A DNA stretch of 64,000 nt, taken from assembly GCA_049320885.1 (NCBI GenBank), contig JBMORA010000063.1, positions 64,001-128,000 on the forward strand, read 5' to 3'. This DNA is from Thermodesulfobacteriota bacterium. Its GTDB lineage: Bacteria; Desulfobacterota; Desulfobacteria; Desulfobacterales; SURF-7. How positions within the stretch are numbered: the first letter of the stretch is position 1; each line of letters opens with the position of its first letter. The translations under genes were made by a program, and so were the position numbers. Under the pieces are notes generated by a model. The model searched no databases. It saw only the letters and a program-made list of their open reading frames with translations, and had not been told where the DNA came from. This document shows, piece after piece, positions 21,541-48,789 of the stretch.

Positions 21541-22404
21541 ATGAATTTGATGCTAAAACTCGGCAAACAAAGCGTTGTCACCACCGAACTGGGTCCGGTG
21601 AAAGGTGCCATGGCCCGGGAGGCTCTTGAAAAGGCCGCCGCCTATGCCGCGCTCGACGGGGTCAACATCCATGATTGCCCCATGGGGAATTTGCGGATCA
21701 ATTCCATCGCCATGGGCAGCCTGATCCAGGCCCGGCTGGGACTCTCCGCGATCCCCCATTTCACCTGTCGCGACCGCAGCCTGCTGGGCACCCAGGCGGA
21801 TCTTCTCGGCGCGCACGCTCTCGGCATCCGCGCCCTGCTCGTGACCACCGGAGATCCGCCCAAACACGGCCCCTATGCCTCCAAGGCGGTATATGATTGC
21901 AACACCTTCGAACTGGTTCGGCTGGTCAAGAAAATGAACGCCGGGCTGGATGCAAACGACAAGGAATTCGGCGGCCATACGGACTTCACCGTCGCCTGCA
22001 CCGCCATGCCCACGGCCCGTGACCTGGATCGCGAACTGGAACGCATGCAGAAAAAAATCGACGCCGGCGCCGACTTTTTTCAAACCCAGGTCGTTTATGA
22101 CGTGGAAAAAGCCCTTCGGTTCGCCGAAGCGGCCCGCAAGCTCGGCAAGCCCTTCCTGATGGGTGTCATGCCCTTGAAAAGCGTCAAGATGGCCCGGTAC
22201 ATGCAGGAAAAAGTCGAGGGTATCGACGTGCCGGATCACATCATCGCAAGCATGGAAAGGCACGGTCAAAGCGGCATCGACATCGTCTGCCGCATCGTCC
22301 GCGAAATCCACGCCCATGTGGATGGCATCCATATCATGGCGCTGGGGGATGTGGCGGGCACCAACCGGATTATCGAGTTCGCCCGCTCCCTGCCGAAAGC
22401 GTGA
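21541..22404 (+). CDS. metF: Methylenetetrahydrofolate reductase family protein (stand-alone paralogue)
   Basis: TELGP, PHFTCRDR, TGDPP, KIDAGADFFQTQ, GIHIM; AAGGAG RBS. Confidence 0.85.
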   Translation: MNLMLKLGKQSVVTTELGPVKGAMAREALEKAAAYAALDGVNIHDCPMGNLRINSIAMGSLIQARLGLSAIPHFTCRDRSLLGTQADLLGAHALGIRALLVTTGDPPKHGPYASKAVYDCNTFELVRLVKKMNAGLDANDKEFGGHTDFTVACTAMPTARDLDRELERMQKKIDAGADFFQTQVVYDVEKALRFAEAARKLGKPFLMGVMPLKSVKMARYMQEKVEGIDVPDHIIASMERHGQSGIDIVCRIVREIHAHVDGIHIMALGDVAGTNRIIEFARSLPKA

Positions 22405-34926: not shown

Positions 34927-35829
34927 TCAGGCAGGATTCGCCCGGACCACTCCGGCGGCGGCCATGATGTCCGGGACGGTCTCCTCCTTGCCGATGGCCA
35001 TGATGTGGACCCCGTCGCAGATCTTCTCCTCATGAATCCGCCGGATCATGCGGCCGGCGATTTCGATGCCCTTGGCCAAGGCGCCGCCCTTGGGCGCGGC
35101 GGCCATTTCGTCGATCAGTTCCTGGGGCACGTTGACGCCGGCGATGTTCTTGTTCATGAAGCGCGCCATGGGCGCGGAGGTGAGCAGGATGACGCCGGCC
35201 AGGATTTTCACCGGGAATTGGCGGGCGTACTCCATGAAGGCCTTGAGCCTGTCCAGATCATAGACCGCCTGGGTCTGAATGAATTCGGCGCCGGCCTCGA
35301 TTTTTTTTTCGAACTTGATCAGCTGGGGCTCCAGCGGCTCGGCCTCGGGTGTGACAATGGCCCCGGCGCAATAGGACACCTCGCCGTCCAGATCGTTGCC
35401 CCCCAGATCCTTGCCCTTTTCCAGGGTGCGGATGGCGGCCACCAGTTGGCTGGAATCCAGATCGAACACCGGTTTGGCCTGCTTGTGGTCCCCGAGCATG
35501 ACCGAGTCGCCGGTCAGACAAAGCACGTTGCGCACCCCCCGGCTCCAGGCGAACAAGAGGTCGGCCTGGAGGGCCAGACGGTTGCGGTCGCGGCAGGTCA
35601 TCTGCAGGATGGGCTCGCCGCCCTTTTCCTTCACGAGGAGGGCGCCTCCAAGGGAAGGATACCGCATCACCGAACTCTGGTGATCGGTGAGGTTCATGGC
35701 ATCCACCTTATCCTTCAGCAAATCGATGTGATGGGTCATCTTGTCCAAGTGGGCGCCCTTGGGCGGAGCCAGTTCACAGGTGACCACGAATCTGCCGGAA
35801 ACAAGCGCTTTTTTGAATTCAGAAACCAT
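34927..35829 (-). CDS. metF: Methylene-THF reductase catalytic subunit
   Basis: CELAPPKG, NLTD, QMTCRDRNRLALQ, CLTGD, KIEAGAEFIQTQ, GVHIM. Alternative start 35874 is ATGA-coupled to metV. Confidence 0.93.
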   Translation of the reverse strand: MVSEFKKALVSGRFVVTCELAPPKGAHLDKMTHHIDLLKDKVDAMNLTDHQSSVMRYPSLGGALLVKEKGGEPILQMTCRDRNRLALQADLLFAWSRGVRNVLCLTGDSVMLGDHKQAKPVFDLDSSQLVAAIRTLEKGKDLGGNDLDGEVSYCAGAIVTPEAEPLEPQLIKFEKKIEAGAEFIQTQAVYDLDRLKAFMEYARQFPVKILAGVILLTSAPMARFMNKNIAGVNVPQELIDEMAAAPKGGALAKGIEIAGRMIRRIHEEKICDGVHIMAIGKEETVPDIMAAAGVVRANPA

Positions 35830-35870
35830 GGCTCGTCCATCCTTTTCCGAAACGGTTCGATTGACGATCG

Positions 35871-36527
35871 TCATGCGTCGGCCTTATTTTCAAAATGGCC
35901 GGGTTTGGGCTCGCCCAGATAATTCCGGGGGCCGAAAAGCCGGCGCATGGAATCCAGCCGGTCCAACGCTTTCAGGCGGTTGTAGATCAGGGTCCAGGCA
36001 CAGTCCTTGTTCTTGTCGATCTCGCATTTACCCTTGTCGGTTCCACCGCAGGGACCGTTCACCAGGCCTTTGTGGCAGGAAGTGACCGGGCAGATCCCGC
36101 CGGTTTCGCCGATGATGCAGGTGCCGCACTGGGTGCAGATTTCCTGGAACCGGCCGGCGGCGGTTTCCTTGCCGATGAACAGCGTGTCCAGAGCCGGAAT
36201 GACATTCTTCCCGATCTGCCTGGCCAGGGTCTGGACGCCGAAGGCGCAGCTCATCACCAGCAGGGCCGTGGCCTGCTGAATGCCGGCGTCGCATTCCCGA
36301 AGCATTTCCAGGGTCAGGTTGTCGCAGGCCACCGGCACAACGGTCTGACCGGTGACCATTTTTCCGGCCTGGGACAGCCGTTCCTTCATGGCGGCCACCT
36401 GCTCCGTTCCGCCGGTGCGGGTGAGGGTCGCGCAGGTGCCGCAACCGATGATGAAAATGCGGTTGAAATCCGCCAGAAGCCGCGTCAGTTCCGCCTCCGG
36501 CTTGGGCTGGGTGATGGATCGAATCAT
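35871..36527 (-). CDS. metV: Methylene-THF reductase small Fe-S/Zn subunit
   Basis: GCGTCAT, AC, SCAFGVQ, CTQCGTC...GGICPVTSCHKGLVNGPCGG...GKCE...CAW; directly upstream of metF. Confidence 0.9.
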   Translation of the reverse strand: MIRSITQPKPEAELTRLLADFNRIFIIGCGTCATLTRTGGTEQVAAMKERLSQAGKMVTGQTVVPVACDNLTLEMLRECDAGIQQATALLVMSCAFGVQTLARQIGKNVIPALDTLFIGKETAAGRFQEICTQCGTCIIGETGGICPVTSCHKGLVNGPCGGTDKGKCEIDKNKDCAWTLIYNRLKALDRLDSMRRLFGPRNYLGEPKPGHFENKADA

Positions 36528-36531
36528 GATG

Positions 36532-39500
36532 TCATCTCCTCTCTTTCTCCAGGTCGCACCGCAGGCAGCGATAGGCTTCCCGACCGGCTTCCTCCGCGCT
36601 GACAAAGCCTTTTTCAACTTCGCGGAAGTCCCTGACGCGCTCACGCGGTTGCTCCAGTTCGACCTGTATGCGCGGTTTTTCCGCCGCTGATTCCTCCTCC
36701 AGAGCCAGACCGGCGTCGACGGGTGTGCGCGTTTTTTCGTCGATGATGGTGATGCGGCCCGTGTCACCGCTCAAAAAACGGTGAACGGCTATGGCCGCCC
36801 GTCGTCCCGAGGCGATGGCGGAGATCACGGTGCTGGGACCGGTGGTGAAATCGCCGCCGGCGAAAATACCGGGTACATTGGTGGACAAACGGTTGGCGTC
36901 TACTTCCAGGCTGCCCCAGAGGGAACGCTCGATCTGGCTGTCCTTGGAAAGAAAGGAAATGTCCGGGGCCTGACCGATGGCGATGATCACCGCGCCGGCT
37001 TCCACCTGCCGGATCTCGGTCTCGTCCAGGCTCAGGCGCGAGCGTCCGTCGGCGTCATATACGGTTTTGCTGCGCGCGAATTCCATGCCGGCCACCCGGC
37101 CGTTGTTCCGCAGGATGGATTTGGGCGCCCACATGGGATGAATGGTGATCCCTTCCTCCTCCGCCTCCTCGATGTCCTTGACCCAGGCCGGCATTTCCTG
37201 AACGCTTCGGCGGTAATAGATCTGCACGTCTTCCGCACCCATGCGCAGAGCCGTCCTGGCCGCATCCAGGGCCACATTGCCGCCGCCGATCACCAGCACC
37301 TTGCCGCCCAGGGGCACGGATTTGCCGGTGCGGACGGCCGTCAGGAACTGAAGGCCGTAATGCAGTCCCGTTACCCCCTCCCCTTCTCCGGCGATGCCCA
37401 TGCGCATGCTGGCCTGGGCCCCGGCGGCGATGAAGACCGCGCCGTACCCTTCGGCCATCAAATCATTGACCGTATGTTTGGCATCGATGGGAGCATTGTA
37501 GCGGATATCCACCCCGCAGTTTGCAATGTAGGCGATTTCCTGCTCGATGATCCGCCGCGGCAGCCGGAATTCCGGCACGGCGATCCCCAGCATGCCGCCG
37601 CCCCGGTCCTGGGATTCGAACACCGTGACCTTGTACCCCGATTTGGCCAGAAAATAGCCGCAGGTCAGTCCGGCGGGGCCTGCCCCCACCACGGCCACGG
37701 TCTGTTTTCGGGTGACGGGAAAGGGGTTCCGTTCGGGACCGATGTGCTCGAAATACCAATCCGCGGCAAAACGCTTCAGGGACCGTATGGCCACCGGATC
37801 ATCCAATTCGCCGCGCCGGCATTTGGTTTCGCAGGGATGGATGCAGATCCGTCCGCAGACGGCCGGAAACGGGTTGCGCTCCCGGATGATCTCCACCGCC
37901 TGCCGGTACTGGCCGCGGGCCACTGCCGCCACATAATTGGGGACATCGATGCCCGCCGGACAGGCATGCTGGCAGGCGGAAATGACCATGGCGTCGCAGA
38001 CGGCGCCGGAACAGCGATGTTCCCGGATATGATCCTCGTATTCCTTGGCAAAATATCGCAGGGTGGAAATGGCCGGCTTGGCGCAGGTCTGGCCGAGACC
38101 GCAGAGGGAGGTCTCCGTGACGGTGGCGCCGATTTCGCGGATGCGGTCCAGATCCGTCGGGTTTCCCTGACCGCGGGTGATGCGTGTCAGGATTTTCAGG
38201 AGCTGGGTGGTTCCCAGACGACAGGGCGCGCATTTGCCGCAGGATTCGGACTGGGTGAATTCCAGAAAAAAACGGGCGATTTCCACCATGCAGTTGTTTT
38301 CATCCATCACCACCATGCCGCCGGATCCCATGATGGCCCCGATCCGCTGGAGGGTGTCGTAGTCTATCGGAATGTTCAGATAATTGGCGGGCACACAGCC
38401 GCCCGAAGGTCCGCCCATCTGCACGGCCTTGAACTTCCGGCCCTTGGGAATCCCGCCGCCGATGTCAAAGACCACCTCGCGGATGCTGACGCCCATGGGG
38501 ACTTCCACCAGGCCGGTGTTGTTCACCTTTCCCACCAGGGAAAAGATCTTGGTGCCCTTGCTCTTTTCCGTGCCCACCTCACCGTACCAGGCGGCGCCGT
38601 GGTTGATGATCAGGGGGATATTGGCCCAGGTCTCCACGTTGTTGATATTGGTGGGTTTGCCGGCCAGACCGGCCTGGGCCGGGAAAGGCGGCCGGGCCCG
38701 GGGCATCCCCCGCTGGCCTTCGATGGAGGCCATCAGGGCGGTTTCCTCGCCGCAGACAAAGGCACCGGCCCCTTTTTTCAGGCCGAGATGGAAGCGGAAA
38801 CCGGTACCCATGATGTCCTCGCCCAAAAGCCCCAGGGATTCCATCTGCCGGATGGCGATGGTGAGGTGATCGATGGCGATGGGGTATTCCTCGCGCACAT
38901 ACACATAGCCGTATTCCGCGCCGATGGCGTAGGCCCCGATGAGCATGCCTTCCAGCACGGCATGGGGGTCGCCCTCCAGCACGGCCCGGTCCATGAAGGC
39001 TCCGGGGTCGCCTTCATCGGCGTTGCAGATGATGTATTTCGGCTTGCCCTCGGCTTCCCGGGCGAACCGCCATTTCTGGCCGGTGGGAAACCCCGCCCCT
39101 CCCCGGCCGCGCAGCCTGGCGGCGATGACCTCCTCGATGATCTCATCGGGCCGCATCCGGGTCAGGGCCTTGACCAGGGCCTGATACCCACCGGCAGCGA
39201 TATAGTCCTCGATATCGGTGGGATCGATCTGCCCGCAATTGGAAAGGACCCGGCGCACCTGCTTGCTGAAAAAGGGAATGTCCCGCTCCCGGGGGATTGG
39301 GGCCCGGGTATCCGGGTCCGTGTAGAGCAGACGCGGAACCTGTTCCCCCCGTTTCACGGTCAGGTTGACGATATCCGGCACGTCCCGGGGCTCCACCTGG
39401 TTGTAGAAAATATCCTCCGGCTCGATGTTCATCACCGGACCTTTTTCGCAGAATCCGCGGCAACCGGTTTTTTTGATCACGATCTGATCCGCAAGACCCT

Positions 39501-39663
39501 GAGCCGTGAGTTCCGCCTGCATGGCCTCGATGATCTTGAGGGAACCGCCGGCCCGGCAGCCGGTGGTGCAACAAATCTTGATGACGCGTTTTTCCTTCGC
39601 TTTCCTGTCCTTGACGGCATGGGCCAGGACGGTCAGATCTTCGGGAACTCGTATTTTTTTCAC
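36532..39663 (-). CDS. NuoF/HydB-like FMN-NADH subunit fused to a C-terminal GltD/NfnB-like FAD/Fe-S module
   Basis: Trx-like [2Fe-2S] (CCTTGC...GCRGFC), LRGRGGAGFP, NADEGDPGAFMDR, FVCGEET, GGPSGG, ESCGKCAPCRLG, SLCGLG; then CQHACP...CGRICIHPCETKC, GAGPAG, GGGNVA, YRR, RCLRC. Confidence 0.92.
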   Translation of the reverse strand: MKKIRVPEDLTVLAHAVKDRKAKEKRVIKICCTTGCRAGGSLKIIEAMQAELTAQGLADQIVIKKTGCRGFCEKGPVMNIEPEDIFYNQVEPRDVPDIVNLTVKRGEQVPRLLYTDPDTRAPIPRERDIPFFSKQVRRVLSNCGQIDPTDIEDYIAAGGYQALVKALTRMRPDEIIEEVIAARLRGRGGAGFPTGQKWRFAREAEGKPKYIICNADEGDPGAFMDRAVLEGDPHAVLEGMLIGAYAIGAEYGYVYVREEYPIAIDHLTIAIRQMESLGLLGEDIMGTGFRFHLGLKKGAGAFVCGEETALMASIEGQRGMPRARPPFPAQAGLAGKPTNINNVETWANIPLIINHGAAWYGEVGTEKSKGTKIFSLVGKVNNTGLVEVPMGVSIREVVFDIGGGIPKGRKFKAVQMGGPSGGCVPANYLNIPIDYDTLQRIGAIMGSGGMVVMDENNCMVEIARFFLEFTQSESCGKCAPCRLGTTQLLKILTRITRGQGNPTDLDRIREIGATVTETSLCGLGQTCAKPAISTLRYFAKEYEDHIREHRCSGAVCDAMVISACQHACPAGIDVPNYVAAVARGQYRQAVEIIRERNPFPAVCGRICIHPCETKCRRGELDDPVAIRSLKRFAADWYFEHIGPERNPFPVTRKQTVAVVGAGPAGLTCGYFLAKSGYKVTVFESQDRGGGMLGIAVPEFRLPRRIIEQEIAYIANCGVDIRYNAPIDAKHTVNDLMAEGYGAVFIAAGAQASMRMGIAGEGEGVTGLHYGLQFLTAVRTGKSVPLGGKVLVIGGGNVALDAARTALRMGAEDVQIYYRRSVQEMPAWVKDIEEAEEEGITIHPMWAPKSILRNNGRVAGMEFARSKTVYDADGRSRLSLDETEIRQVEAGAVIIAIGQAPDISFLSKDSQIERSLWGSLEVDANRLSTNVPGIFAGGDFTTGPSTVISAIASGRRAAIAVHRFLSGDTGRITIIDEKTRTPVDAGLALEEESAAEKPRIQVELEQPRERVRDFREVEKGFVSAEEAGREAYRCLRCDLEKERR

Positions 39664-39705
39664 GCCGATCCTCCTTTGTGACGTCAGACCCAGCGGCTTC
39701 TCCGG

Positions 39706-40194
39706 CTATTCCCCCTGCCGGCCTTCCTTGCCGAAGTAGTTCAAGATACCGGCCACCTTGGGCGGCGAGAGCTTACCGAAATAGTCCCGGTTCACCATCA
39801 TGGTGGGCGCCAGGGCGCAGGCCCCGAGGCAGGCGGCCGATTCCAGCGTGAACTGATAATCCGGCGATGTTTCCCCTTCCTTGAGTTTCAGCTCCTGCTG
39901 CACCATCCGCAGGATGCTCCGGCCGCCCTTGACATGGCAGGCGGTTCCACAGCAGACCCGCATCACGAACTTGCCCCGGGGGGCGAGGGAGAATCCGGCG
40001 TAAAAGGTGATCACCCCCTGGACCTGGGAAGGAAAGATGCCCAGGGCTTCGGCTATCGGTTCCACGGATTCAGGCGGAATAAAACCGAAGGTTTTTTGAA
40101 TGTCCTGCAACAGGGGAATCAGCCCCCACTGCTCCTCCTTGCGGGATTCGATGAGAGCGTTCAGTTTCTGTTGATCGATTTCAGGCGGTTTCAT
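39706..40194 (-). CDS. NuoE/HydC-like [2Fe-2S] subunit
   Basis: LIPLLQDIQ, GVITFY, CCGTACHVKG, ACLGACALAP. Confidence 0.93.
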   Translation of the reverse strand: MKPPEIDQQKLNALIESRKEEQWGLIPLLQDIQKTFGFIPPESVEPIAEALGIFPSQVQGVITFYAGFSLAPRGKFVMRVCCGTACHVKGGRSILRMVQQELKLKEGETSPDYQFTLESAACLGACALAPTMMVNRDYFGKLSPPKVAGILNYFGKEGRQGE

Positions 40195-42842
40195 GGCGTT
40201 CCCCCTTCCGTTTTTTCAATGCCCACCGGGCAGCAGTTCCAACCCGGGGAAGCCGAATCCATCAGTGGCGTCAGGCCCAGCAGACGGCGGGCCTGATTCG
40301 ATTCTTCCCCCTGGGGCAGCCAGACCAGACCGGACCGCAGCTGCCGGTCAATCCGGACCCGTCCATGCAACGATCCCGCTGGAGAAGTCAACCGGATGGT
40401 GTCGCCCTCCGCGACGCCCCATTGGACGGCATCCTCCTCGGAGACGGCGATGCCTTCCCGGTCCTTGAAAGCGGCGATACGCGGCGACAGTGCCGTGCGC
40501 GTCCCGCTGCCCAGATGATATCGCGGGGATCCGATGACCGCCATGAATGGATATGCGGGGTCCACCGGCTCCTGAACGGAGGTTTTCACGGCTGAAAACG
40601 GGATCGCCTGTTCACCGCCTTCCCGCCTCTGGATCCAAACCAGCTGCCCGCTGCGCGAGCTGCGGGCATACAAGGGCAGCACCTGACCGATTTCAGCCCG
40701 CACTTCTGCCAGGGAGGCGGGCGGGCGCTCGTCTCCCAGATGCCGCGCAAGGGAGATCAGGATCGCGAGATCCGGCCTGGCCTGGCCCGGCGGATCCGCC
40801 GCGGCCGACAGCTGTTGCAGACGGCCTTCCATGTTGACGAAGGCGCCCTCCTTCTCCGAAAAGGCCGCTCCGGGAAGCACGATGTGAGAATCGGCGACGG
40901 TCTCGGTGAGCAGGATATCCTGGGTGACGATAAGTTCGAGTCTGGACAAGGCCGCCTTCACGCGTTCCGGCTGGGGCAGGCTTCGCAGCGGGTTCTCGCC
41001 CATGATGAACATCCCTTTGAGACGGCCCTCCTCGGCCGCCTGAATCATGGCCACCAGATCCAGCCCCGGTTCGGCGGGCAGGTCGGTCCGCCAGACCGCC
41101 TCCCATTCCCTGCGGGCCTCCTTGTCCGCCACCGGCCGCCTGCCGGGCAGGGCATCCGGGACGCTGCCCATGTCCCAGGCGCCCACCATGTTGTTTTCCT
41201 TGGCCGGGATATAGAAACCGGCGCCTTTGTGGGCGATGCTGCCGGTCAGCATGGCCAGGTTGAGCAGCGCATCGACGGTTTCCAGGCCGGAGCGCTGCTT
41301 CAGGATGCCGTCGCCGATCACAAAGGCGATTTTTTTGTGACTCAACAGGTCCACCGCTTTTGCCAGGGATTCCTTTGCAAGTCCCGTCCGCCGGCAGATC
41401 AGCGACAGATCCAGAGCGCCCAGGCTTTCGGTGTATCGCCGGAATCCCTCGACAAACCGTTCCACAAAGGAAGCGTCATGGTTGTTCCGGGCCAGCATCA
41501 TCGCGGCGACGGCATGGACCAGATCCGCATCGGACCCGGGCTGGAGCGCCAGCCATAGAGCGCTGTATCCGGCAAGCTCGGTTTTTCGCGGATCAACGAC
41601 GATGATAGGGGTACCGTTGACGGCGCTGCGTTTGAGATAATATCCCATAACCGGCATGGAATGGGTCGGATCGGCGCCCATCACCAGGATCGCATCGCTT
41701 TTTTCCAGTCCGGCCAGGGAGCCGGCGAAAAAATGAAAGCGCCCGCCGCCGTCAGTGCGATTTTCAATGCTGCTAAGCAGTCGCCGTCCCAGTATGTAGC
41801 CGCCGTTGTCCAGGTTGTTGGTCTTCAGCAGGCTCCGGGCGATTTTTTGAAACAGATAATTTTCCTCGTTGGTGCATTTGGATGACCCCAGGAAAGCAAT
41901 GCTCCGCGGCCCATGGCGTTCCTTCAGCGCCAAAAGCCGCTGCGCCGTTTCCCGCAGGGCGTCGTCCCAGGATACGGCCTCGAGGGTTCCGTTTCTGCGG
42001 ATCAGGGGGTGCACGAGCCTTCTTTCGCTGTTCAGAAAATCATGACCGAAATGTCCTCGCACGCAAAGAGTGGTCCCATTCACGGATTTGGAATCCATGG
42101 CGGGATTGGCCTCAACGATCCTTCCATTGGAAGCACCGAGCCGCAGGCGGCAACCCACTCCGCAGAAGCCGCAGACCGTATCCACTTCCCGTTCGGGGAC
42201 GCCCACGTATCCGGAACGGATGGTCAAGGCGCCGGTGGGACAGACCGCGACGCAGGTGCCGCAGAAGGTGCAGCCGGACCGTTCCAGGGGTCTGTCCTGC
42301 AGGGTCGCCGGATAGGAACGGATGCCCCGCATGGAATAATCGATGGCACCGGTGACCACCAGTTCGTGATCGGCCCGGATGCATTTGCCGCAGAGGATGC
42401 ACTTGGAGAGATCCCGATAGATAAACGGGTTGAGCTGGTCGGGGGTCTTATCGCCGGGCATGGGGTCCAGCCGGATCGCCCCGACACCGAGATCGGCGGC
42501 CGCCCGGCGGAGACCACAACGGTTGCCTTTGTCGCAAACGATGCAGGATTCCGGATGAGCGGCCAGCATCAGGGTAACAATATTGCGGCGATGGGTGAGA
42601 ACCCGGGGGCTGTCGGTCAGAATCGCCATGTTTTGAGCCGCGGGAGTCACGCAGGACGCCAGGAGCCGGCCGCTTTTCTGTTCTTCCACCAGACATACGC
42701 GGCAGGCGCCGAAAGGTTTGAGATCCGGATGATGACAGAGCGTGGGAATGCGGAAACCGTTCTGGACGGCTGCGTCCAGCAGGCTCTCTCCCGGATTGCA
42801 ATGGATGGATTTGCCGTTGATGGTCAGGGTGATGACTTCCAC
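40191..42842 (-). CDS. FdhA/NuoG-like Fe-S molybdopterin-family subunit lacking FDH catalytic residues
   Basis: [2Fe-2S] (LC...GACRVC...SC), HxxxCxxCx5C, 2x[4Fe-4S] domain, CGFCGVGC...LCVRG, SSKCTNEENY, MGENP, EKEGAFVNMEGR. GTG start after AAGGAGG. Confidence 0.88.
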   Translation of the reverse strand: MEVITLTINGKSIHCNPGESLLDAAVQNGFRIPTLCHHPDLKPFGACRVCLVEEQKSGRLLASCVTPAAQNMAILTDSPRVLTHRRNIVTLMLAAHPESCIVCDKGNRCGLRRAAADLGVGAIRLDPMPGDKTPDQLNPFIYRDLSKCILCGKCIRADHELVVTGAIDYSMRGIRSYPATLQDRPLERSGCTFCGTCVAVCPTGALTIRSGYVGVPEREVDTVCGFCGVGCRLRLGASNGRIVEANPAMDSKSVNGTTLCVRGHFGHDFLNSERRLVHPLIRRNGTLEAVSWDDALRETAQRLLALKERHGPRSIAFLGSSKCTNEENYLFQKIARSLLKTNNLDNGGYILGRRLLSSIENRTDGGGRFHFFAGSLAGLEKSDAILVMGADPTHSMPVMGYYLKRSAVNGTPIIVVDPRKTELAGYSALWLALQPGSDADLVHAVAAMMLARNNHDASFVERFVEGFRRYTESLGALDLSLICRRTGLAKESLAKAVDLLSHKKIAFVIGDGILKQRSGLETVDALLNLAMLTGSIAHKGAGFYIPAKENNMVGAWDMGSVPDALPGRRPVADKEARREWEAVWRTDLPAEPGLDLVAMIQAAEEGRLKGMFIMGENPLRSLPQPERVKAALSRLELIVTQDILLTETVADSHIVLPGAAFSEKEGAFVNMEGRLQQLSAAADPPGQARPDLAILISLARHLGDERPPASLAEVRAEIGQVLPLYARSSRSGQLVWIQRREGGEQAIPFSAVKTSVQEPVDPAYPFMAVIGSPRYHLGSGTRTALSPRIAAFKDREGIAVSEEDAVQWGVAEGDTIRLTSPAGSLHGRVRIDRQLRSGLVWLPQGEESNQARRLLGLTPLMDSASPGWNCCPVGIEKTEGGTP

Positions 42843-42858
42843 AAGACCGCCTCCTTAG

Positions 42859-42958
42859 AAGTCCCTGTTCTGTCACTCCGTCCCGGATCGGAGTCCAGAA
42901 GCAATTATAAATACTGGATGACGGAGACCGAGAGTCTCGACTTTTACGAGTTCATCAA
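42859..42958. repeat. Palindromic MITE/REP-like intergenic element (degenerate)
   Basis: Three nested hairpins (ACTCCG/CGGAGT, TCCAG/CTGGA, GAGAC/GTCTC) within AAGTC...GACTT, ending GACTTTTACGAGTTCATCAA. This resembles the end of an intergenic repeat I recall from deltaproteobacterial genomes; only one copy is in this window. Confidence 0.55.
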
Positions 42959-42961
42959 GAT

Positions 42962-43837
42962 CTATTTCAGCTTGGCGGCGTCCAGATACAATTTCAGCTT
43001 GTCTTCGCCGCCGATGGTGATGATGTGAATGCCCTGGCAAAGATCCTTCAATCCGTTGACGAGGTCGGCGAACAGTTCGATACTGGCCTTCCTCTTGTCA
43101 TGGGCTCCGGCGAGCTTCTTGATGACCCAATCGGGAACCAGTCCGGACTTGAGATGACGATTCAGGAACTGGCCCACCCCGGCTGTTTGGAGAATCATCA
43201 CCTCCGCGATCACCGGAATCCCGAAGGTCTGGGTCTGCTTCAGGAATTTTTCAAAACGCTCCAGGTCGAACACCGGCGTGGTGAGAAAATAACCGGCGCC
43301 CATGCGGGTCATCTCCTCCATTTCCTTGAGCTCGAGTTCCGGCACGTTTTTGCCCCAGGCGGATTCCACACCCGACCCGAGCACGAACTCCGCGGGTTTT
43401 GGAAGGGGTTGGCCGTCCACGGTCTGACCGGTCTTCAAATGCTCCAGAACCGAGGCCAGTTTTCCGGCATCCACATGGAAAAACATCATTTCCTGGAGAC
43501 TGTCGCCGGTAATGCGGTAATCCTCGGTGAATACCAGCAGGTTTTCGACCCCGGACTGATGGGCGCTCAGCAGGTCTTTCTGCAATTGCAGGCGGTTTTT
43601 CTGGCGGGTGGTGGTCTGGTAGATGGCTTCGAAACGGTTCTGCTGGAGGATATCGCAGGTCTTGATGGTATCCCCCACCACGCCTTCCAGTTCAATCTCG
43701 GAGATGGATACGCCGTCCACCCGGCCCCGGATGAGCTTCAGGTTGTCGATCAGATCGTCCGGGCCCTCACCCAAGGGCGACTGCACCTCGGAAGTGACGA
43801 CGAATTTGCCGTTCTTGAGCGCTTCTTTCAATTTCAT
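42962..43837 (-). CDS. Divergent MetF-like protein
   Basis: MTHFR-fold alignment (KFVVTSE, TTRQKNRLQLQKDLL, GAGYFLTTPVFD, GIHII) with several motifs altered; GGGGAGG RBS. Confidence 0.8.
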   Translation of the reverse strand: MKLKEALKNGKFVVTSEVQSPLGEGPDDLIDNLKLIRGRVDGVSISEIELEGVVGDTIKTCDILQQNRFEAIYQTTTRQKNRLQLQKDLLSAHQSGVENLLVFTEDYRITGDSLQEMMFFHVDAGKLASVLEHLKTGQTVDGQPLPKPAEFVLGSGVESAWGKNVPELELKEMEEMTRMGAGYFLTTPVFDLERFEKFLKQTQTFGIPVIAEVMILQTAGVGQFLNRHLKSGLVPDWVIKKLAGAHDKRKASIELFADLVNGLKDLCQGIHIITIGGEDKLKLYLDAAKLK

Positions 43838-43903
43838 ATCGACCTCCCCGGCGGTTTTCGACACCGCGGCGGACATGGCTGCCGAATGAGAAAGGCCGTA
43901 AGA

Positions 43904-44476: not shown

Positions 44477-44532
44477 GAGGATACCCCCCTTTTCTGGTGG
44501 TGGCGGGGAAAATTGTTTCTGATTTATAATTA

Positions 44533-44584
44533 TTTTAGTTTTTTTAGTTTGTCAACACTTATTTTGTTTTAGTTTTTTTAGTTT
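44533..44584 (-). promoter_or_regulatory. AT-rich promoter region with two identical 18-bp direct repeats
   Basis: TTTTAGTTTTTTTAGTTT at 44533-44550 and 44567-44584, each with a 9-bp internal period. TTGACA on the minus strand at 44550-44555. Confidence 0.7.
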
Positions 44585-46523: not shown

Positions 46524-48500
46524 TCAAGACCCGGCGGTGGCCCCTTTTTCCAGGGCCACCATGCCCATCTGATAACAACGCAGGCAGCGGGAGGCCTCCT
46601 CCAACGCCTGGGGCAATGTATAACCGGTTTCAATTTCAGCCAAACTGCCGACCCTCTCTTCCAACGGAATCGTCGGCATGGGCACCCGCTCCTCGGACGG
46701 CAATATCGGTCGCGGGGCCTCGCCTTCGACCCCCAGCATCCTCATCAGCTTGTCCATTTTTTCAGCAGCGGAAAGGCTGACGGGTTGATGGTTCAGGTAT
46801 TGATCGATGCTTTCGGCCGCTCGTTTACCGTGAGCGCAGGCGTCCACGATGGTCAAGGGACCGCTGTAAACATCTCCGGCGGTGAAAATCCAGGGCACAT
46901 GGGTCTGATACGTGTCCGGATCCGCCACGATGGTTTTCCAGCGGGTCAGCTGGACCCCTTCCACCCCGTTCAACACTGTCAGATCACTCTCTTGTCCGAT
47001 GGCCTGAATGATGATATCCGCCGGGACCACGAATTCGGAACCTTTCACCTCCCGGGGGCTTCTCCTGCCGCTGGCATCCGGTTCGCCCAGCTCCATCCGG
47101 ATGCATTCCATCCCGACGACCTTGCCATCTTCCGCGATGATTTGTTTGGGCGCGGCCAGGAACAAATATTTGACGCCCTCGATTTCCGAATCGTGAACCT
47201 CATGGGGATCAGCTGGCAACTCCTTTTTGGTCCGGCGATACACCACGGTTACCTCCGCGGCGCCCTTTCGGATGGGGGTTCGGCAGCAGTCCATGGCCAC
47301 ATTGCCGCCGCCCACGACGACAATCCGCTTGTCTTTCAAATCATAACATTGGGAGATCACGCAATCGCGAAGATAATCCACGCCGGTGATGAACCCCTCG
47401 TAGCCTTCATCCTCCCCCTTGGCCCCCATTTTTTTGGATATATGGGCGCCGATGGAAATCAGAACCGCCTGGTACCCCTGGTCCCGAAGCATGGGGATGG
47501 TCAGCTCCTTTCCGATGGGAGTGTCATAGCGGATCTCAACGCCCATGCCGCGAACAAAATCCACTTCCCGCTGCAGCACTTCCTTGGGAACCCGGTATTG
47601 AGGGATACCCACGCCCACCATGCCGCCGGAAACCGGCAGCGACTCGAAAACCGTCACCCGATAACCCATGAGCGCCAGATAGTAGGCCGCGGACAGTCCG
47701 GCCGGTCCGGCGCCGATAACCGCCACTTTTTCTTCCCGGAGGGATTTGGCCGGATTCCCGGGTTTCGCCACCGGGTGGGTATCCTCGAAATCCCAGGCGA
47801 AGCGTTTCAGCTTGCAGATGGAAACCGGTTTGCCGGAGTACCCCCGCCGGCAATTGGTTTCGCATGGATGGAAACAGGCCCGGCCCAGGGAGGCCGCCAT
47901 TGGGCTGGCCTCCCGAATAATTTTCAGTGATCCCAAATGGTTACCTTCATGAATACACTCAACGAAACCAGGGATGTCCATCCCCGCCGGACAGGCGGAA
48001 TAACAGGGCGCGGTCCATCTGGCGGCATACCGCGTGTCGGTGCGAAGCGGTTTCCTGGAATGAATCAGGTCCATGAATTCGTTCTTGAAATACCGCAGGG
48101 CGTGCTGAATCGGAATGGGAACGGTTTTCCCGATATAGCATTTCGACCCCATGGATATGTAATCGGCCAGTTCGGCAAGCCGGTTCAAATCCTGTTCGTC
48201 GCCCTGCCCCGCCACGATTTTCCTCAGGATCGTCGCCATGGCTTCCGTGCCCATCCGGCAGGGGAAACATTTGCCGCACGAGGCTTTCCCGGCCTCCTCG
48301 ACGTAGTGAAGACACATATCCGCCATTCGTACGGAATCCGCAAGCAGAATGATTCCCGCCCATCCCATGAATGCGCCGATCCGGTTTTCCGGATCAAATT
48401 CCTTTGGCAGCTTGATGGCGGGGGCATTCAGGCGTTTGCCCGGTTCCATCCCCCGATTGTCAATGACCTCGTTGTTCCAAGAAGAAAATAGTACTTCCAT
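46524..48500 (-). CDS. GltD/NfnB-like FAD/Fe-S oxidoreductase with N-terminal NuoF-type [4Fe-4S] domain
   Basis: ASCGKCFPCRMG...SKC; APCYSACP...GRACFHPCETNC; GAGPAG, GGGNVAMD, YRR, RCLRCY; AGGAGA RBS. Confidence 0.88.
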   Translation of the reverse strand: MEVLFSSWNNEVIDNRGMEPGKRLNAPAIKLPKEFDPENRIGAFMGWAGIILLADSVRMADMCLHYVEEAGKASCGKCFPCRMGTEAMATILRKIVAGQGDEQDLNRLAELADYISMGSKCYIGKTVPIPIQHALRYFKNEFMDLIHSRKPLRTDTRYAARWTAPCYSACPAGMDIPGFVECIHEGNHLGSLKIIREASPMAASLGRACFHPCETNCRRGYSGKPVSICKLKRFAWDFEDTHPVAKPGNPAKSLREEKVAVIGAGPAGLSAAYYLALMGYRVTVFESLPVSGGMVGVGIPQYRVPKEVLQREVDFVRGMGVEIRYDTPIGKELTIPMLRDQGYQAVLISIGAHISKKMGAKGEDEGYEGFITGVDYLRDCVISQCYDLKDKRIVVVGGGNVAMDCCRTPIRKGAAEVTVVYRRTKKELPADPHEVHDSEIEGVKYLFLAAPKQIIAEDGKVVGMECIRMELGEPDASGRRSPREVKGSEFVVPADIIIQAIGQESDLTVLNGVEGVQLTRWKTIVADPDTYQTHVPWIFTAGDVYSGPLTIVDACAHGKRAAESIDQYLNHQPVSLSAAEKMDKLMRMLGVEGEAPRPILPSEERVPMPTIPLEERVGSLAEIETGYTLPQALEEASRCLRCYQMGMVALEKGATAGS

Positions 48501-48558
48501 TGTTTCTCCTGACCCATCGCTTTCTTTTTTGCATCCGATAATCCGCTTTACCGGGCGA

Positions 48559-48789
48559 TCAGGTTTCGCACGGCGGCGTCGGAGCGATTTGTTGCAGTTC
48601 CCGGGACTGGACCTTGCGAATCCAGTATTTCCCCGCAATCAACGTCCCGATTGCCATGGGTAAATATGCACATAAAAAAACGGTTGTCAATGTTTCTTGA
48701 TCCCGGCTGGCCCAAAAGAGACAGGCCGTCAGCTCGATCAGCACCAGCACATCCAGGAAAACCACAACCAGACGTTGTCGGACAGACAT
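48559..48789 (-). CDS. Small two-TM membrane protein
   Basis: 76 aa with two hydrophobic helices; AGGAGG RBS. Confidence 0.7.
   Translation of the reverse strand: MSVRQRLVVVFLDVLVLIELTACLFWASRDQETLTTVFLCAYLPMAIGTLIAGKYWIRKVQSRELQQIAPTPPCET

Follow-up and report, generated by a model that had tools for sequence, protein, structure and literature searches.

How complete oxidisers and syntrophs oxidise methyl-tetrahydrofolate (methyl-THF; about -200 mV) with NAD+ is a recognised bioenergetic question, for which the locus described here provides a defined five-protein candidate. The locus lies at positions 34927-43837 of a 64,000-nucleotide stretch of contig JBMORA010000063.1 from a Thermodesulfobacteriota bacterium (the window), where genes for a methylenetetrahydrofolate reductase (MTHFR; MetF), its partner MetV and a divergent MTHFR-fold protein (MetF*) flank genes for a trimer that resembles the A, B and C subunits of the Bfu enzymes. 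The question it raises is whether these proteins form one enzyme and, if so, whether that enzyme couples the methyl/methylene-THF step to two pyridine nucleotides. Our reading, to which we give a probability of roughly 60%, is that the operon encodes an MTHFR of the X type, i.e., a soluble complex of MetF and MetV with the ABC module, and that these genes follow a separable cassette consisting of a regulator and MetF*.

Six open reading frames (ORFs), whose overlaps and gaps were checked on the sequence, are encoded on the minus strand, and their coordinates agree with the six co-oriented genes of the original prediction, which had been made from this DNA alone. These are metF* (43837-42962; 291 aa from an ATG with a ribosome-binding site, in a frame that opens at 43876), an fdhA-like gene (42842-40191; 883 aa, FdhA/NuoG-like and BfuA-like), nuoE (40194-39706; 162 aa, a NuoE/BfuC-like thioredoxin-fold 2Fe-2S subunit), nuoF::gltD (39663-36532; 1043 aa, a NuoF/BfuB core with a GltD/StnC-like FAD module), metV (36527-35871; 218 aa, an Fe-S subunit with an NGPCGG motif) and metF (35829-34927; 300 aa, an intact MTHFR). 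The ATGA overlap between the fdhA-like gene and nuoE, the 42-bp gap between nuoE and nuoF and the 4-bp gap between nuoF and metV are all as predicted. The metV and metF genes are indeed neighbours, although their junction is either an ATGA overlap or a 41-bp gap depending on the start codon chosen for metF (the alternative start at 35874 gives 315 aa). Domain calls (Pfam, NCBIfam) identified the metF product as a normal MTHFR and MetF* as a weak one (67.6 bits), and all operon genes are under purifying selection (dN/dS). Long ORFs that cross the operon on the plus strand (e.g., 36781-39681) were regarded as antisense shadows of the genes on the coding strand.

MetF* served as the query of a scan that confirmed 270 relatives, and gene order was counted among the best 80 of these 270, whose record titles refer mostly to Desulfobacterales or Deltaproteobacteria. 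The fdhA-like gene was next after metF* in 73 of the 80 loci, and all six genes were found in order in 43; because 37 of the 39 loci with at least 8.8 kb of downstream DNA keep all six genes, the order is not due to chance, and the linkage stood up to the synteny check by which the original prediction could have failed. In a phylum sample of 301 genomes, 87 carried the full NuoF::GltD fusion; the loci retrieved were those of the 35 genomes carrying the closest copies (the source genome included) and of 24 weaker copies. Among 107 full-length fusions, 83 showed at least 56% identity, and wherever there was room these were followed by metV (78/78; at no more than 600 bp in 77 and at about 750 bp in one) and accompanied by metF (70/70), as compared to 0 of 24 weaker homologues with metV or metF next to them. 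In a FastTree tree of 79 of the 103 distinct sequences (midpoint root; close kin, half of the first-scan set, removed), the MetFV-linked fusions formed a single clade (55/55, support 0.946) apart from the hydrogenase-linked and formate dehydrogenase (FDH)-linked copies. Acetyl-CoA synthase (ACS) was found in 34 of the 35 genomes that carry this clade as compared to 31 of the 52 other NuoF::GltD carriers, kin among them not being independent, which bears out the predicted co-occurrence; overall, 201 of the 301 sampled genomes have ACS. The operon is patchy, with close fdhA-like orthologues in 12 of 61 relatives (a count that includes the source genome), and one cultured carrier is Desulfatibacillum alkenivorans (locus L092).

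The FdhA-like A subunit carries a 2Fe-2S cluster, a His-ligated 4Fe-4S cluster, a 2x4Fe-4S domain in which Cys158 is replaced by Asp, and one further 4Fe-4S cluster; every cluster ligand is kept except Cys158. Asp158 was present in 72 of 75 MetFV-linked A subunits as compared to 0 of 20 others, the two members that branch deepest being among the three exceptions. Assuming the usual ferredoxin ligand swap, we place the Asp-ligated cluster next to the catalytic domain. That domain is of the molybdopterin type and lacks the Cys or Sec ligand, the catalytic His and the Arg (Leu351, Gly352 and Ala547); together with a score of 448 bits against TIGR01591 (FDH alpha), where the cut-off is 666, this agrees with the predicted loss of an intact FDH site, and Pfam found no hydrogenase domain in the trimer, again as predicted. 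The subunit might still bind molybdopterin and oxidise formate or another substrate, thereby feeding methylene-THF reduction, as the retained pterin-region motifs (His776 in 61/63, GTRT, Arg262) and the prevalence of Ser at the ligand position could suggest. We regard this as extremely improbable, given that the ligand column varies (Ser 29, Asn 8, Ala 7 of 63), the adjacent His is Gly in 59/63, the catalytic Arg position holds Ala, Ser or Thr in 56/63, and TGA-containing FDH alpha genes occur separately in the genome. Conservation within the subunit is lowest in the C-terminal half. In Desulfonema magnum (L078:13113-15281) the fdhA-like match does not extend past residue 731, and an unrelated 390-aa ORF is part of the roughly 2.1 kb that separates it from nuoE; D. 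magnum may suit purification poorly.

The core of the B subunit consists of a thioredoxin-like 2Fe-2S domain, an FMN/NAD site, the B1 cluster and the B2/Zn site, with ligands conserved in 50/50 sequences (Cys32/36/68/72; Cys475/478/481/521; Cys458-His545-Cys551-Cys556). Across the 107 fusions the B2/Zn site was kept in all and the Phe/Met pair of the FMN loop in 104, these positions having been matched to the Bfu paper by motif and not through its alignment. The elements of the Bfu BC core (FMN, B1, C1, the thioredoxin-like cluster and B2/Zn) are thus all present. The HydB match of B stops at residue 560-563, where B3/B4 would start, and the C-terminal B3/B4 2x[4Fe-4S] ferredoxin domain was not found in B, in which Pfam identified Fer4_20 and Pyr_redox_2 instead; the missing B3/B4, reported as essential for Bfu bifurcation (Li 2025, available text), speaks against bifurcation of the standard Bfu kind as originally suggested. 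The GltD-like module starts eight residues past the last B2 ligand, and its eight Cys are conserved in 50/50. The best PDB matches were 7t2r_B, 9n5u_A and 9bov_A. The module scored 338, 333 and 326 bits against 9n5u_A, 9bov_A and 8oh5_C, respectively, as compared to 267-295 bits against the NfnB-type chains 4ylf_B, 5vj7_A and 5jca_L, and it has a C-terminal RCLRC segment as in StnC. The original prediction was therefore right that an FAD module is fused to NuoF and that the fusion has two flavin sites, which the motifs of the B core and of the GltD module support, but these scores and the RCLRC segment rule out the label NfnB in favour of the NADPH domain of Stn/NfnABC.

The second Rossmann fold of the fused module is followed by YRR in the window copy; we take GGGNVA with a downstream YRR to be an NADP(H) signature (the general GxGxxA pattern is known from the literature). 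The predicted NADP(H) site may hold for this copy but is not supported as a general feature: among 83 orthologues the motif was YRR in 40, CLE in 42 and SLE in one, on which count we reject a universal NADP site, and all 24 outgroup copies have YRR. In the tree CLE occurs in three separate groups, so the switch arose more than once.

Gene order, the structure of the clade and the co-adapted residues together point to an NAD(P)H-linked MTHFR complex of five subunits, which we consider quite probable. The trimer could alternatively work alone as a transhydrogenase or diaphorase that is merely co-regulated with MetFV, the latter using ferredoxin like the 2S enzyme of C. ljungdahlii. NuoF::GltD with NuoE does behave as a mobile module with several catalytic partners: the weaker fusions examined adjoin Sec-FDH, [FeFe]- or [NiFe]-hydrogenase or aldehyde oxidoreductase genes or no catalytic gene, and none is adjacent in L178 and L179. 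According to the available text of the literature, moreover, the Stn genes of Sporomusa adjoin metVF, yet Stn purifies as a separate enzyme. A stand-alone trimer nevertheless appears very improbable to us, as the A subunit would be jobless if B bears both nucleotide sites, yet its cluster ligands and Asp158 are conserved; the spacing between nuoF and metV across loci has a median of about 2 bp; and no member of the MetFV-linked clade was seen without metVF. The loci of the weaker copies (L162-L185) extend the partners of NuoF::GltD beyond [FeFe]-hydrogenases to Sec-formate dehydrogenases, [NiFe]-hydrogenases and an aldehyde oxidoreductase, and in L172 the partner bears a glycine-cleavage H domain. 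Upstream of the operon, a protein of approximately 650-700 aa (46524-48638, minus strand) combines a NuoF-type NADH_4Fe-4S domain with a fused GltD-like module but lacks an FMN domain; a homologue lies directly 3' of metF in L033.

The MetFV pair itself has the features of its type, i.e., metV 5' of metF, NGPCGG and two Cys clusters in MetV, and the MetF residues Glu, Asp and Gln; Glu19, Gly107-Asp108, Lys175/176, Gln187 and His275 of the operon MetF are invariant in 40/40 sequences. Two of the four metV genes in the genome sit behind HdrL-MvhD, and these HdrL-MvhD modules beside metVF bear the same GltD-like domain, which we count in favour of a joint complex. The two HdrL-MvhD-MetV-MetF sets are located at G000:C48:61157-69633 and G000:C16:12185-18477; the C48 set is preceded by HdrC/HdrB-like genes and surrounded by glutamate-synthase-like genes, and the conserved Asp is replaced by His in its MetF. 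In L137 (16436-19409) multiheme cytochrome and cytochrome b genes follow HdrL-MvhD-MetV-MetF, and L130 (456-3459) has ORFs of the same size, which suggests a membrane link. A stand-alone MTHFR of 287 aa with intact catalytic residues and no adjoining metV (21541-22404, plus strand) lies in the window directly 3' of a hybrid histidine kinase and an ABC efflux cluster. X-type MetF measures 294-300 aa, shorter than the pathway MetF1 of D. multivorans (307 aa in the available part of that paper's supplement); one supplement file of PMC11887813, as far as available, gave 0 matches for metF.

MetF* retains Glu17, Asp106 and His271 and is altered at four positions that are invariant in MetF (G107>E, K175/K176>E/M and Q187>T). 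Among 59 aligned MetF* sequences the catalytic Glu and the Asp were kept in all, Gly was replaced by Glu in 54, the second Lys had become Met, Leu or Ile in 59/59, and Gln was changed in every sequence, to Thr (56/59) or Pro. The altered Gly and Lys positions are presumably flavin-binding. The full set that marks flavin-dependent MTHFRs, i.e., equivalents of Glu28, Asp120 and Gln183 with the GD and KK motifs, is not found in MetF* (the roles of Glu, Asp and Gln are taken from the literature). An alignment-based model of MetF* is an MTHFR barrel (pLDDT 85.6; Z 23.9 and rmsd 3.6 over 268 residues against 3apt), a protein atlas lookup returned MTHFR clusters only, and the dN/dS of 0.04-0.07 indicates purifying selection like that on MetF. 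Cthe_2304 (PDB 3ijd; Z 21.4), which binds methyl-THF according to its entry title and on which no paper was found in the literature, and the mycobacterial Mfr (PDB 8bgr; Z 19.0) share the fold at 14-15% identity or less, and 3ijd matches the MetF* profile at E 4e-5. MetF* could thus be a second, flavin-independent catalyst that transfers hydride directly between NAD(P)H and methylene-THF, as the flavin-free Mfr of mycobacteria exemplifies and as the invariance of the catalytic Glu and the folate-binding Asp might suggest. Such a role strikes us as improbable: Mfr keeps the Gln183 equivalent that MetF* has lost, flavin MTHFRs fit the model better (Z 23-24), and wherever the neighbourhood is readable MetF* lies beside an intact metVF or a MetF-MetV fusion. 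Most likely, MetF* is a flavin-free folate-binding accessory protein or sensor serving MetFV whatever the electron module.

The original prediction had counted MetF* with the complex, which the distribution of metF* contradicts. Sixteen X-type loci (L146-L161) showed no metF* within the fetched DNA, some of which ended at contig edges, and a MetF* profile search of five such X-type genomes found nothing above 213 bits in 5/5 (true MetF* scores 470-540). Conversely, the regulator and metF* head an Hdr-type module in 20 loci (18/28 in one set and 2/5 in another), in eight of which metV-metF is visible, so that Hdr-MvhD-MetVF clusters carry them too. These data led us to reject the idea that the trimer complex needs MetF* as an obligate subunit, and they indicate that MetF* follows MetFV and the regulator and not the electron module; the best reading is that regulator and MetF* make up a detachable cassette ahead of MTHFR genes. 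In two loci metF* lies 5' of a MetF-MetV fusion and the regulator is absent. A 660-aa fusion of an unassigned N-terminal part, MTHFR and the MetV C-terminal domain is encoded directly 3' of metF* in L131:9388-11394 (-) and L138:2693-4675 (-). Distant matches of family f82 at 38-40% (L119-L122) are ordinary MetF and were excluded from the MetF* set; a second degenerate MetF (L144; G000:C25:751-1704) with Gln>Pro, His>Leu and Asp>Glu and without metV is distinct from MetF* (27% identity). A complex prediction for MetF, MetV and the regulator with MetF* as partner scored 0.00, which is beyond the calibration of the tool, and was counted neither for nor against binding.

The six genes are real, but the unit begins further upstream than originally predicted. 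A response regulator of 190 aa (44476-43904, minus strand; HTH_17, MerR-like, and receiver domain by Pfam) lies 5' of metF* in all 73 loci with room, and a sigma-70-type promoter, TTGACA...AATTAT (44526-44555, minus strand), precedes the regulator and is overlapped by A/T-rich direct repeats with a 9-bp period. In 64 of 70 loci TTGAC was found within 130 nt 5' of the regulator, as compared to a mean of 5.8 and a maximum of 14 after shuffling. Since both regulator and promoter are conserved in these positions, the transcript likely comprises seven genes and starts at this promoter. Self-match at the 9-bp period in the promoter region was 0.54 as compared to 0.38 after shuffling, and a genome scan with a two-copy version of the repeat matched only at the operon's own promoter; the repeats are likely a binding site, putatively that of the regulator. 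Sigma-70-type sites (four in total) and terminator-like sites (13 against 14.6 expected) occurred in the region at chance level, and no RNA holder was listed for the operon region. A PAS-domain histidine kinase (46578-44656, minus strand; Pfam), of which close homologues lie 5' of the regulator in many related loci but not all, is a possible cognate sensor. In the loci without metF* (L146-L161), metF is mostly followed directly by the gene of a small receiver protein, after which a hybrid kinase is often encoded; two-component genes thus accompany the operon in both layouts.

If the complex forms, MetF would interconvert methylene-THF and methyl-THF, and MetV would hand electrons singly into the FdhA-like subunit, which would have turned into a wire and docking platform, its Asp-ligated cluster lying on the branch that hydrogenase and FDH relatives use toward their catalytic domain. 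The wire would end at the B1-FMN-C1 hub, the site of the NAD(H) reaction, and the GltD-like FAD module would serve as a second exit in the place of ferredoxin, taking a second pyridine nucleotide (NADP(H) here, as suggested by YRR). For the window copy the likeliest coupling would be methyl-THF + NADPH + 2 NAD+ <-> methylene-THF + NADP+ + 2 NADH, with NAD(H) at mid-potential. With potentials of about -200 mV (methyl-THF), -280 mV and -370 mV, this coupled reaction comes out near equilibrium. The first two values are from the literature. Coupled bifurcation is plausible, and, given the complex, strict coupling falls somewhat short of an even chance.

Several observations weigh against these readings. 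The 56% identity cut was picked after the matches had been seen, closely related and repeated loci are among those counted, and the 80 loci represent the best of 270 relatives. Only 34 of the 201 ACS-positive genomes carry the MetFV-linked clade; the source genome holds eight MTHFR homologues and four metV genes, and its ACS and Fhs are located on other contigs than the operon. One MetFV-linked A subunit (L152) still has Cys at the Mo-ligand position, and constraint is weakest on the fdhA-like gene (dN/dS 0.14-0.16), which four loci have in split or truncated form. With regard to coupling, the reportedly essential B3/B4 is absent, and the 43 of 83 copies with CLE or SLE count against it because two NAD sites could not drive each other. 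Canonical Bfu wiring would make methyl-THF oxidation uphill on both arms, so that an inverted use of the hub is needed, for which we found no precedent.

The same five-subunit complex might accordingly be uncoupled, a plain NAD(P)H:methylene-THF oxidoreductase like MetFV-RnfC2 of A. woodii, with two alternative nucleotide entries and no bifurcation. The missing B3/B4, the repeated switch from YRR to CLE and the resemblance of the fused module to the NADPH entry domain of Stn/NfnABC all fit such an enzyme, and the other MetVF sets of the genome could hold the energy-linked role. We consider this a realistic but rather unlikely alternative, as B2/Zn and the FMN-loop pair are retained at positions that the available text of the 2022 Bfu paper ties to bifurcating members (subject to the motif-based matching noted above), and as a scaffold this elaborate would be unnecessary for an uncoupled reaction. 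The most specific version of the coupled enzyme is an inverted Bfu enzyme, in which NAD(H) would occupy the FMN hub at mid-potential, MetFV the Asp-tuned A arm at high potential, and the fused NADP(H) module the place of ferredoxin; the reverse Wood-Ljungdahl pathway would then draw the energy for methyl-THF oxidation from the oxidation of NADPH, needing neither ferredoxin nor an ion gradient, and expression, including that of Hdr-type MTHFRs in other lineages, would be set by a portable cassette of the response regulator and a MetF pseudoenzyme, free of flavin, that senses the C1 pool of folates. We judge this coupled, sensor-controlled version unlikely, because the scheme fits the window motifs and the potentials but neither the CLE variants nor the role of B3/B4. 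The operon may show how these anaerobes pay for an uphill Wood-Ljungdahl step, and it offers residue-level predictions (Asp158, the YRR and CLE variants, the missing B3/B4). If true, the coupled reaction would add a ferredoxin-free, high-potential third substrate to the range of Bfu chemistry, and the regulator-MetF* cassette suggests a folate-responsive control layer common to different MTHFR types.

The arrangement had been put forward as a candidate new complex, but it was already published as the X-type (group III) MTHFR by Yi et al. 2021 (PMC8515935), whose available text describes a hypothetical MetFV-NuoEFG pentamer of Dethiosulfatarculus sandiegensis, drawn from gene order, speculates on bifurcation, and calls the type widespread in Desulfobacterales and unstudied. 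The window operon shares its defining feature, i.e., NuoE, NuoF and NuoG homologues directly upstream of metVF; in its available parts that text has no mention of the GltD-like fusion, the B3/B4 loss, the disabled FDH domain, the Asp ligand, MetF* or the regulator. The operon is a member of this published hypothetical kind, and the clade, Asp158, motif and MetF* details were not found in print. No biochemical study of an X-type enzyme was found in the literature, and nothing on MetF* in titles or abstract starts, most subscription journals being outside the coverage in both cases; the "MetF-ABC" of Strittmatter 2009 was rejected as a prior description, being a legend label only, with no partners given in section 13 of the available text. 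The main text of the 2022 survey by Schut, which defines Bfu, gave 0 matches for MetF or MTHFR in the part available. Among known systems, the 6S-type MetFV-MvhD-HdrABC (Moorella, Sporomusa) and the 3S-type MetFV-RnfC2 (A. woodii) likewise let MetFV borrow a nucleotide-binding flavin module encoded upstream, but their electron modules are unrelated to the operon trimer; the HdrL-MvhD-MetVF sets, two of them in the source genome, also bear a GltD-like domain. Sub-type I BfuB of Hydrogenedentota [FeFe]-hydrogenases has B3/B4 replaced by DPD_II and an FAD/NAD(P) domain at the C-terminus, with a mechanism left open (Zheng and Huang 2024, PMC11406978, available text); its partner is an H-cluster subunit, whereas that of the operon protein is a catalytically disabled FdhA-like subunit with MetVF. 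Within the Bfu family, Stn/NfnABC (PMC9304861, PMC11829005 and PMC7483475, as far as available) shares the BC core of FMN, B1, C1 and B2/Zn and has a GltD-like NADP(H) module in the complex, but there the module is part of subunit A and B keeps B3/B4 for ferredoxin, whereas in the operon the module is fused to B.

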